Below are positions 2,062-2,622 of a stretch of 4,291 nucleotides of DNA, piece after piece; position 1 is the stretch's first letter, and each line of letters starts with the position of its first letter. The position numbers and the translations under genes were made by a program. The DNA comes from a virus (Duplodnaviria; Heunggongvirae; Uroviricota; Caudoviricetes), in the IMG/VR virus record IMGVR_UViG_2541047502_000012, one strand, 5' to 3'. The notes beneath the pieces were generated by a model, which was not told the DNA's origin, did no database searches, and was given only the letters and a program-made list of their open reading frames with translations.

Positions 2062-2088
2062 GCCTCATCAACTGTATGAGGCTTTTTT
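2062..2088 (+). terminator. Terminator-like hairpin plus U6 abutting the start codon of the 177-aa ORF
   Basis: Stem GCCTCAT (2062-2068) / ATGAGGC (2076-2082), loop CAACTGT, then TTTTTT (2083-2088), followed immediately by ATG at 2089. The only Shine-Dalgarno-like GAGG (2078-2081) is inside the 3' arm of the stem. Confidence 0.5.
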
Positions 2089-2622
2089 ATGCAAACCAAA
2101 AGCTACACCATCAAAGCATTTCAGGACTTCTTACAGATGCTTCCTGAGCTTGGTATCGTCAATGATGCTACAGCCCGCAATCTCCGTGACTCTTCCCTGC
2201 GCCTTCTTACTGTTCTTGGGTCGGATTTCACCGATGCCGATATCCGTGATTATAGCGTTGCCAACTTAGCAAGTTCGTACGCAGACTCAGCAGAAAGCAA
2301 ACCCTCTGAATCATCTTTGCAGGCATACAAAAGCCGGATGCAAAGTGCTATTGATAAATTTATCTCCTACCAGAATGGTGAGATTAATGTGTCAGTTGGT
2401 GATGTAAATAAAAAAAAGGAGCGTAAAAAGATGGCACCTAAGAAGAAGGCGGTAGCTGACGTACAGGTTGGTGTAAAAACATTTGAACTGCCGATTCCAT
2501 TGCGCGGAGATCTTATCGTCACCATTGGCAACCTGCCTCGCGACCTGACAAAAGATGAAGCCAAGCGTATCAGTCTGATTGTGGAATCTTTTGCGATGAT
2601 TGATGGCGGAACAAAAGAATAA
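2089..2622 (+). CDS. Hypothetical protein (177 aa): acidic N-terminal region, Lys-rich linker, short C-terminal domain
   Basis: Long ORF with plausible codon usage. Central KKKERKKMAPKKKA stretch. Followed directly by a strong intrinsic terminator. No family recognised by eye. The start is uncertain (ATG 2089 or the in-frame ATG at 2137). Confidence 0.6.
   Translation: MQTKSYTIKAFQDFLQMLPELGIVNDATARNLRDSSLRLLTVLGSDFTDADIRDYSVANLASSYADSAESKPSESSLQAYKSRMQSAIDKFISYQNGEINVSVGDVNKKKERKKMAPKKKAVADVQVGVKTFELPIPLRGDLIVTIGNLPRDLTKDEAKRISLIVESFAMIDGGTKE

Follow-up and report, generated by a model that had tools for sequence, protein, structure and literature searches.

What does a hairpin with the shape of an intrinsic terminator do when it stands directly against the start codon of the next gene? 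The question is raised by a stretch of Caudoviricetes DNA of 4,291 nucleotides (nt; IMG/VR virus record IMGVR_UViG_2541047502_000012), hereafter the window, in which such a hairpin and the run of T that follows it (2062-2088, plus strand) lead straight into the ATG of a gene for a 177-amino-acid (aa) protein of phrog_2602, a family of unknown function (2089..2622, plus strand). Judging from its sequence, the window is the immunity region of a Shiga toxin (Stx)-type lambdoid prophage, and at the DNA level it shares 99.9-100% identity with Escherichia phage SH2026Stx1 and with prophages of a handful of genomes from Escherichia coli that produces Shiga toxin (STEC). Lambdoid phages are known to carry morons, autonomous units of promoter, gene and terminator (PMC3594210). 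At roughly even odds (a probability of about 0.5), we read the hairpin as the 5' insulator of such a moron, mobile and self-contained, in which partial termination would be combined with occlusion of the Shine-Dalgarno (SD) sequence for foreign transcripts only.

A terminator-shaped hairpin contains the only Shine-Dalgarno sequence

A preliminary description of this DNA, made from the letters alone, had placed a stem of GCCTCAT (2062..2068) and ATGAGGC (2076..2082), a loop CAACTGT (2069..2075), TTTTTT (2083..2088) and the start codon (2089-2091) on the plus strand, and reading of the sequence found every one of these elements at the positions given. The anti-SD CCUC lies in the 5' arm, which also covers the discriminator and the predicted transcription start. 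The 3' arm contains GAGG (2078-2081), the sole purine-rich SD candidate, 7 nt ahead of ATG 2089, and the T6 run is at once the U-tract of the hairpin and the spacer between SD and ATG. Folding agreed with the earlier statement that the stem sequesters the only SD, as GAGG was fully paired in every modelled RNA that has the 5' arm.

A pattern scan marked the site as terminator-like and gave it 7 pairs, of which 4 are G-C, a 7-nt loop and the tail TTTTTTATGC. It is a G+C-containing stem-loop with a U-run directly 3' of the stem, as in an intrinsic terminator, and it adjoins a true start codon, as had been claimed. With 7 T in the first 8 bases after the stem, its U-run is the best in the window, and the isolated hairpin folds at -8.9 kcal/mol, compared with -11 to -17 kcal/mol for the clear terminators of the window. 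The 101-nt surroundings of the hairpin fold with z = -2.85 relative to shuffles. Given that a hairpin followed by a T-run is nothing unusual by chance (12 such sites in the window vs 3.8 +/- 2.0 in shuffles), the case for this one being real rests on conservation. The hairpin is real and conserved, and its U-run is kept in most leader variants, as detailed below.

The true start codon is ATG 2089. The in-frame TGA at 2077-2079 means that no start upstream of 2080 is possible, and both public annotations, like every homologue, begin the gene at ATG 2089. The homologues begin at the aligned ATG, their residues 1-16 are conserved, and the PHROG profile match starts at residue 1 of the 177-aa protein. 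The annotations, homologues and profile thus back ATG 2089, and the later ATG 2137, named earlier as a possible real start, is unsupported.

The initiation region GGCTTTTTTATGC (2079-2091) is also complementary at 12 of 13 positions to codons of an AYKSR motif (2323-2335) located 230 nt downstream, a pairing that a repeat tool reports as 20-nt arms at 2073-2092 and 2323-2342, at 80%. It was set aside, being near chance expectation (approximately 0.2 per region) and falling on invariant AYKSR codons.

The predicted transcription start of the cassette lies within the 5' arm

The hairpin is preceded on the plus strand by a candidate sigma-70 promoter with a -35 hexamer TTGATT (2032..2037), a spacer of 17 nt and a -10 hexamer TAGTAT (2055..2060). 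Its existence, hexamers and spacer had been recognized correctly in the preliminary description, and both hexamers lie one base to the right of where that description put them. In an alignment of 11 distinct leaders, whose proteins are 52-100% identical, the -35 hexamer is the same in all 11 and the TAnnAT of the -10 is invariant, and just 2 of the 17 spacer columns are invariant. This comparison used a first MAFFT alignment that misaligned the 3' arm, and only its promoter columns were considered. Invariant hexamers around a variable spacer are the usual signature of a working promoter, and no other non-coding element of the locus is as well conserved as this putative promoter. Salmonella and Serratia relatives have TTGATT-17-TATTAT, a 9/12 match and the only promoter-like site in 1.3 kb, ending 0-1 nt ahead of the hairpin marked by the scan. 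At locus L080, where the upstream gene is divergent, a promoter is found at the equivalent place. L072 had been considered as another independent divergent context; since its sequence shows a plus-strand remnant that resembles dinI, it was not counted, and L080 was used instead.

The -10 ends one base ahead of the stem in all 12 leaders carrying the conserved promoter; in the Salmonella clade, where the stem is one pair longer outward, the hexamer ends at 2971 and the stem starts at 2972. Initiation by sigma-70 polymerase occurs about 7 nt (6-9) after the -10, with a preference for a purine after a pyrimidine. By this geometry transcription is predicted to start at A2067 (2067..2067, plus strand), which is preceded by C2066 and is the seventh nt past the -10, so that the leader would measure 22 nt. 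All 11 tabulated leaders with the conserved promoter, including that of the hairpin-less L080, have TCA at the predicted start position, and in all 10 hairpin-bearing leaders with this promoter a count of seven bases from the -10 ends on the A of CTCAT, with C before it. Yersinia phage YP3 has an unrelated promoter (TTAGCA-18-TATAAT, 10/12) whose -10 ends 5 nt ahead of the 5' arm (CTCATA), or two bases ahead of the stem position as aligned, and its predicted start again falls inside the arm. Since A2067 is the sixth base of the 7-nt arm, the mRNA made from the cassette's own promoter would be unable to form the hairpin. An mRNA that opens with the hairpin, as suggested earlier for this promoter, is therefore not supported, because the -10 ends at 2060 and the canonical start falls inside the 5' arm. 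No transcript mapping for the 177-aa gene was found in the literature.

Pairing of the Shine-Dalgarno sequence is conserved among relatives

The SD-pairing stem is kept in 12 of 13 distinct leaders from relatives at 52-90% protein identity. When the leaders were folded, 10 of the 12 variants gave an SD-pairing hairpin of between -9 and -14 kcal/mol, and the weaker ones belonged to L010 (-3.2) and YP3 (a 6-base-pair (bp) stem with an 18-nt loop). RNAalifold recovered a 7-bp consensus stem from unpadded sequences. Stem counts were based on a manual register, in which loops were padded with N, and on a shorter unpadded alignment. In the manual register 82% of cells pair, vs 41-56% when the 3' partners are slid, and the outer pair is A-U in 7, G-C in 3 and U-A in 1. 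Two core pairs tolerate U-G, and the Salmonella and Yersinia clades add pairs toward the loop.

Nine of the 13 leader variants retain at least four T in a row after the stem; in L010, L070, L072 and L078 this run is gone or broken. The stem stays strong in L070, L072 and L078 despite this loss, so SD pairing is better conserved than the U-run. Furthermore, a more distant clade at 38% identity (VT2-Sakai, Oslo and Proteus) has a plain SD with no SD hairpin and a strong terminator 107-183 nt upstream, ahead of the promoter, and no lineage with the SD hairpin retains an intact terminator there. This complementary distribution fits a single job done in two ways.

The hairpin is part of a mobile cassette and travels with the downstream gene

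In BLAST comparisons with related Stx prophages, homology stops at 1899-1920 and resumes at 2947, and the relatives hold DUF6978/DUF1828 genes, PIN/NYN genes or nothing recognizable in between. By this comparison the hairpin is located 140 nt inside an exchangeable cassette (approximately 1921-2946) between the cI-DUF3024 operon and pL. As the plus strand of the window corresponds to the leftward direction of lambda, this slot between the cI operon and pL is the position that rexAB takes in lambda. One and the same unit, made up of promoter, hairpin, 177-aa gene and terminator and in most cases a 44-aa gene, recurs after cI in Serratia and in metagenomic lambdoids, after cI or BstA in Yersinia and after dinI, beside pepN, in Salmonella, Enterobacter and Citrobacter. 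In YP3 the hairpin and the gene follow a 430-aa open reading frame (ORF), and the promoter is different. Such recurrence in unrelated contexts indicates that the hairpin belongs to the 177-aa gene and not to the upstream operon.

As a moron should be, the cassette is present or absent between conserved flanks and is found in unrelated contexts, and it has a conserved promoter-like site together with two predicted terminators. One of these, strong and bidirectional (2621..2644; -11 to -15 kcal/mol), follows the 177-aa gene. The other (2946..2969, plus strand), detected by scan and folding, stands at the cassette end, where homology to Stx prophages resumes. The 5' edge of the cassette carries what appears to be a decayed terminator (1925..1942, plus strand), consisting of GGTCGCAGAAGTGCGGCT followed by TTTAATG, with -9.0 kcal/mol and a short T-run. 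In the VT2-Sakai, Oslo and Proteus relatives its counterpart still has the full T5-T7 run and a folding energy of -12 to -14 kcal/mol, and we consider the 1925-1942 hairpin the likely original end of the cI-DUF3024 transcript. With this terminator decayed, the transcript could enter the cassette.

This raises the possibility that the hairpin at 2062-2088 is simply the intrinsic terminator that now ends the cI-DUF3024 transcript, an analogue of tImm, and that its overlap with SD and promoter is a side effect of tight packing. Its terminator shape, its U-run and the T-runs retained in most variants would all suit that role, as would the degradation of the upstream terminator in this lineage. We regard this as possible though on balance unlikely, given that the stem is retained without the U-run in three lineages, that it is weak beside the clear terminators of the window, and that its 3' arm always has the SD, fixed 5-7 nt from the ATG. 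The element also moves with the gene that follows it, so the fallback offered in the preliminary description, in which the hairpin merely ends the upstream unit, is not supported for a structure lying well inside a mobile cassette.

Several observations concern the slot itself. An approximately 20-nt junction sequence, CTGAAGAAACGTTTGGGTGA / GTGAAGAGACATTTGGGTGA, occurs at 1531-1550, just after cI, and at 1900-1919, just after the DUF3024 gene. It is also found after cI of unrelated lambdoids (L063, L068 and L009). Homology with other prophages breaks directly past it, and it looks like a recombination linker for cassette swapping. Cargo of the slot in relatives includes BstA (KilA-N + BstA_C), DUF6978 + DUF1828 and PIN/NYN nucleases (L078, 1899-2663; L004, 2439-3696; L005, 2428-3285). 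With such cargo, the place behaves like a hot spot of defence-like genes.

A predicted silencing of incoming transcripts

The two kinds of RNA that could cover the start codon differ in silico. Partition-function calculations left 0% of the SD unpaired in any RNA whose start is at 2062 or earlier, and 9-41% for starts from 2065 on. Opening of the region from -14 to +13 costs 12.1 kcal/mol in read-through RNA vs 6.9 kcal/mol in RNA from 2067. A gap in opening cost of 3-13 kcal/mol is seen in 10 of 11 hairpin-bearing leaders and is absent from hairpin-less relatives. By the usual thermodynamic scaling, we estimate that 5 kcal/mol corresponds to approximately a ten-fold difference in initiation.

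In the insulator model, polymerase from the cassette's sigma-70 promoter would start at about A2067, within the 5' arm, and the resulting mRNA, AUCAACUGUAUGAGGCUUUUUUAUG..., would lack the anti-SD arm, so that it would contain no terminator and its SD would be largely free. Transcripts arriving from outside, here the pRM/pRE RNA that runs through cI and DUF3024, would carry both arms. The hairpin would form in this incoming RNA, the U6 would give some intrinsic termination, and molecules that read through would have GAGG locked in the stem and be poorly translated. Partial termination at U6 is plausible, given a weak stem and the best U-run of the window. Expression of the 177-aa protein would then depend on the cassette promoter alone, at any landing site. 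The gating of this ORF by the hairpin, as first proposed, may accordingly be kept for RNA arriving from upstream and is given up for the mRNA of the cassette's own promoter, which is predicted to be stemless.

It is also conceivable that the hairpin resides in the functional mRNA, which would then start upstream of 2062, and acts there as a translational gate (responding to temperature, to a trans-acting RNA or protein, or through ribosome standby) or as a 5'-terminal stabilizer. Conservation and covariation of the outermost pairs are most simply explained if these pairs are transcribed, stem and SD are conserved together, and sequestration of the SD is complete whenever the 5' arm is present. 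Nevertheless, neither the scan nor inspection of 1943-2060 revealed a promoter-like site for a start at or before 2061, in all 12 leaders with the conserved promoter the -10 stops one base short of the stem, and hairpin-less relatives keep the same promoter. A temperature switch is not apparent either, as the stem consists of Watson-Crick pairs and the SD stays 0% unpaired in silico from 25 to 45 C. We therefore consider a hairpin resident in the working mRNA improbable.

Several points weigh against the insulator model. The whole of it hinges on the canonical distance of 7 +/- 1 nt between -10 and start, and the window promoter scores 8/12, under the scan threshold, and is probably modest in strength. 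In RNA from this promoter, a weak alternative stem across the AUG is still possible. Covariation is thin, with about three independent double changes and six core pairs fixed by the SD; shuffle controls are exceeded moderately (16/500 for cells changed on both sides, 42/500 for the covariation score), and the RNAalifold covariation term is just -0.17. The balance of wobbles and mismatches, G-U vs A-C (4 vs 3 events), cannot separate an RNA stem from a DNA palindrome. Loss of the U-run in L070, L072 and L078 and a weak stem in L010 and L083 mean that termination is not a universally selected function. L074 and L076 (56-59% identity) and L080 (47%) have no hairpin and keep the promoter. Finally, the outer pairs, if untranscribed from the resident promoter, would have to be selected wholly via read-through RNA, which is no more than plausible.

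The 177-aa protein has a predicted DNA-binding-like fold

The 177-aa protein comprises an N-terminal helical domain resembling a core-binding domain, a Lys-rich linker and a conserved C-terminal segment. In an AlphaFold model built with 46 homologues, the mean per-residue confidence (pLDDT) was 72. Residues 1-100 were confident, with four helices within residues 8-95 (block-mean pLDDT 79-92), residues 102-127 formed a disordered Lys-rich linker, and the conserved C-terminal segment was modelled at low confidence. The N-terminal domain of the predicted model resembles the DNA-binding core-binding domain of tyrosine recombinases, and members of phrog_2602 are thus, on structural modelling, likely DNA-binding proteins. 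Searches of Pfam, PADLOC and NCBIfam assigned the protein to no family (CagZ, sub-threshold and the sole Pfam line, was regarded as noise), and a sequence-profile search of the PDB returned nothing meaningful. A fold search of BFVD gave weak integrase matches only (E >= 0.09). A scan of genome contigs returned two loci only.

A further explanation is that the 21-bp repeat, which spans -5 to +16, is an operator in double-stranded DNA bound by a dimeric repressor, possibly the cassette's own protein. Repressor operators typically lie where this repeat does, over the (here predicted) start site, the half-sites change together at the outer position as in a palindromic site, and the wobble and mismatch counts given above do not favor RNA. 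The modelled fold of the 177-aa protein is one used for DNA binding. The invariance of the 3' half-site is, however, already explained by its being the SD at optimal spacing, and loop lengths of 6 to 18 nt would break the fixed half-site spacing of a dimer. Nor are the half-sites related to the CTTGATT repeats or to the operators of cI (725-810 and 3100-3180). We consider an operator at this place quite unlikely.

A gene of 44-45 aa follows the 177-aa gene in the Salmonella, Enterobacter, Serratia, metagenomic and L074/L076/L080 contexts. In the window this companion, which usually accompanies the 177-aa gene, is the 44-aa gene of phrog_21154 (2796..2930, plus strand). Its ORF has a strong SD and is preceded by a conserved hairpin of 10-12 bp, TACAACCTGTTCGGGTAAACAGGCTGTA (2747-2774); no convincing promoter of its own was found for it.

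The control region is rich in repeats and Dam sites

The 9-mer CTTGATTTG is duplicated ahead of the 177-aa gene. Its first copy is at 1978..1986 (plus strand), and the second, at 2031-2039, forms the -35 region. Relatives L059, L066, L068, L072 and L078 have more copies, forward and inverted (AATCAAG, AATCAAC), up to 100 nt upstream, and in the window clade and L078 a TTGAT-N11-ATCAA arrangement spans the promoter spacer. These repeats may be a regulator-binding array.

Two GATC (Dam) sites are also found here, one (2016-2019) within the palindrome AACGATCGTT (2012..2021), approximately 51 nt upstream of the predicted start, and one in the promoter spacer (2047..2050). The palindrome site lies about 73 nt before the ATG, and one site lies within or next to the core promoter. 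Twelve of the 21 tabulated lineages keep a GATC at -73/-75 from the ATG. Over 21 related loci, the 110 nt that precede the start contained 40 GATC sites vs 7.4 expected, an approximately five-fold enrichment; none of 2000 shuffles reached 40, and no such enrichment was seen in the coding regions of the 177-aa gene family. At L080, the gene of this family is divergent to a phage Dam methylase gene. The enrichment suggests a methylation-sensitive promoter. The phrog_2602 family, found in Stx phages and among prophages of Salmonella, Yersinia and Serratia, is marked by an unusually structured, GATC-rich control region.

More speculatively, and with little probability in our estimate, the cassette could be an undescribed self-insulated module in which an orphan core-binding-like DNA-binding protein and its 44-aa partner are expressed from a promoter under Dam methylation or replication control, in a cI-N hot spot that also hosts rexAB, BstA and PDC-S43. 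If so, the hairpin would limit the protein to times of promoter firing, e.g., replication, induction or foreign DNA entry, and this would amount to a novel sensing logic in an accessory or defence gene of a prophage.

Other features of the immunity region

The gene content of the window was obtained from the ORF listing and family searches. On the minus strand are genes for CII (74-370) and a Cro-like protein (477-722), and the plus strand carries, in order, a cI-type S24 repressor gene (813-1520), a DUF3024/PDC-S43 gene (1558 onward) and the cassette with its 177-aa and 44-aa genes. Operator-like repeats and pL (approximately 3100-3180) lie between the 44-aa ORF and the N gene in plus-strand order, followed by the N antiterminator gene (3378-3719, plus strand) and an Nmad5-family gene (starting at 3731, plus strand) that is interrupted by an IS3-family insertion sequence (IS).

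The DUF3024 gene, which matches the PADLOC candidate defence family PDC-S43, has a TGG-to-TAG nonsense change (W87*, codon 1816-1818, G1817A), so that its product is shortened from 113 to 86 aa in this genome. G1817A is the sole difference over 4001 bases from an otherwise identical prophage in E. coli 2014C-3061. The IS3-family element (IS1203/IS629 type; 4002-4291, left end TGAACCGCCCCGG..., orfA from 4054) severs the Nmad5-family gene after approximately 90 codons, and relatives free of the insertion encode a 207-aa protein. The N protein has a P22-type arginine-rich motif, GNAKTRRHERRRKLAIERD. Between pL and the N gene, GCGCTGACAAAGCGC (3243-3257) resembles what we take to be the matching P22-type boxB of nutL.

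Comparison with known systems

A terminator directly upstream of a protein gene had suggested a type III toxin-antitoxin (TA) locus (ToxIN, AbiQ, CptIN). The likeness ends with that hairpin and with the phage-related setting. Type III loci have a repeat array and an endoribonuclease of the ToxN family, and their hairpin follows the antitoxin RNA; here there is neither such an array nor such an enzyme, the terminator-shaped hairpin has no RNA gene that it could end, and it overlaps the promoter. The earlier remark that tandem RNA repeats are lacking upstream was borne out by tandem and dispersed repeat searches: Tandem Repeats Finder reported 0 rows at a minimum score of 30, and the longest direct repeats in 1820-2700 were chance-sized matches of 9-15 nt in two or three copies, with no tandem array. 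Rfam gave no match over the whole window at E <= 1, and no ToxN/AbiQ/CptN-type match to the 177-aa protein was found in Pfam, PADLOC or NCBIfam. As its modelled fold is helical and core-binding-like, not that of an endoribonuclease, the analogy fails.

A closer parallel is insulation against outside transcription as in IS10, IS50 and IS200. In the fold-back inhibition of IS10, an inverted repeat reportedly brackets the resident start, with the distal arm covering the ribosome-binding site, and only transcripts begun outside the element are said to have both arms and to be translationally silenced. The protection of Tn10/IS10 from external promoters is the subject of a 1985 paper in Cell by Davis, Simons and Kleckner, which PMC13181058 lists. 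The cassette shares with IS10 the repeat around the (here predicted) resident start, the distal arm over the ribosome-binding site and GATC in the promoter region, and both elements are mobile and must be indifferent to their landing site. GAGG likewise sits in the downstream arm and is inaccessible in modelled RNA once the 5' arm is present. The differences are that here a phage moron and not a transposase gene is concerned, that a U-run follows the stem, so that it may terminate as well, that no antisense RNA is evident, and that start and translational effect are predictions.

The left end of IS200 has a rho-independent terminator against impinging transcription and a stem-loop that sequesters the SD (PMC4513863). 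It resembles the present case in combining a block on incoming transcription with a stem that hides the SD of the element's gene. In IS200, however, these are two separate hairpins, and the SD stem is in the resident 5' untranslated region and also represses the resident mRNA, whereas here one hairpin would do both jobs and is predicted to be absent from the resident mRNA.

With morons and the rexAB-tImm arrangement of lambda, the cassette has in common that it is an exchangeable accessory unit at the cI-N junction with its own putative promoter and downstream terminators, and that relatives hold other cargo at the same place (DUF6978/DUF1828, PIN/NYN or BstA). In the classical arrangement the terminator is downstream only, whereas here a terminator-like element also overlaps the unit's own promoter and start at the 5' end. 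For annotators, a "terminator" that touches a start codon need not mean a silent gene. By analogy, the insulating trick is one already known from insertion sequences. If the model holds, no major concept would be changed; a principle of insertion sequences would be extended to phage morons, and a single 27-nt element overlapping its promoter would make a shuffled prophage gene independent of incoming transcription.

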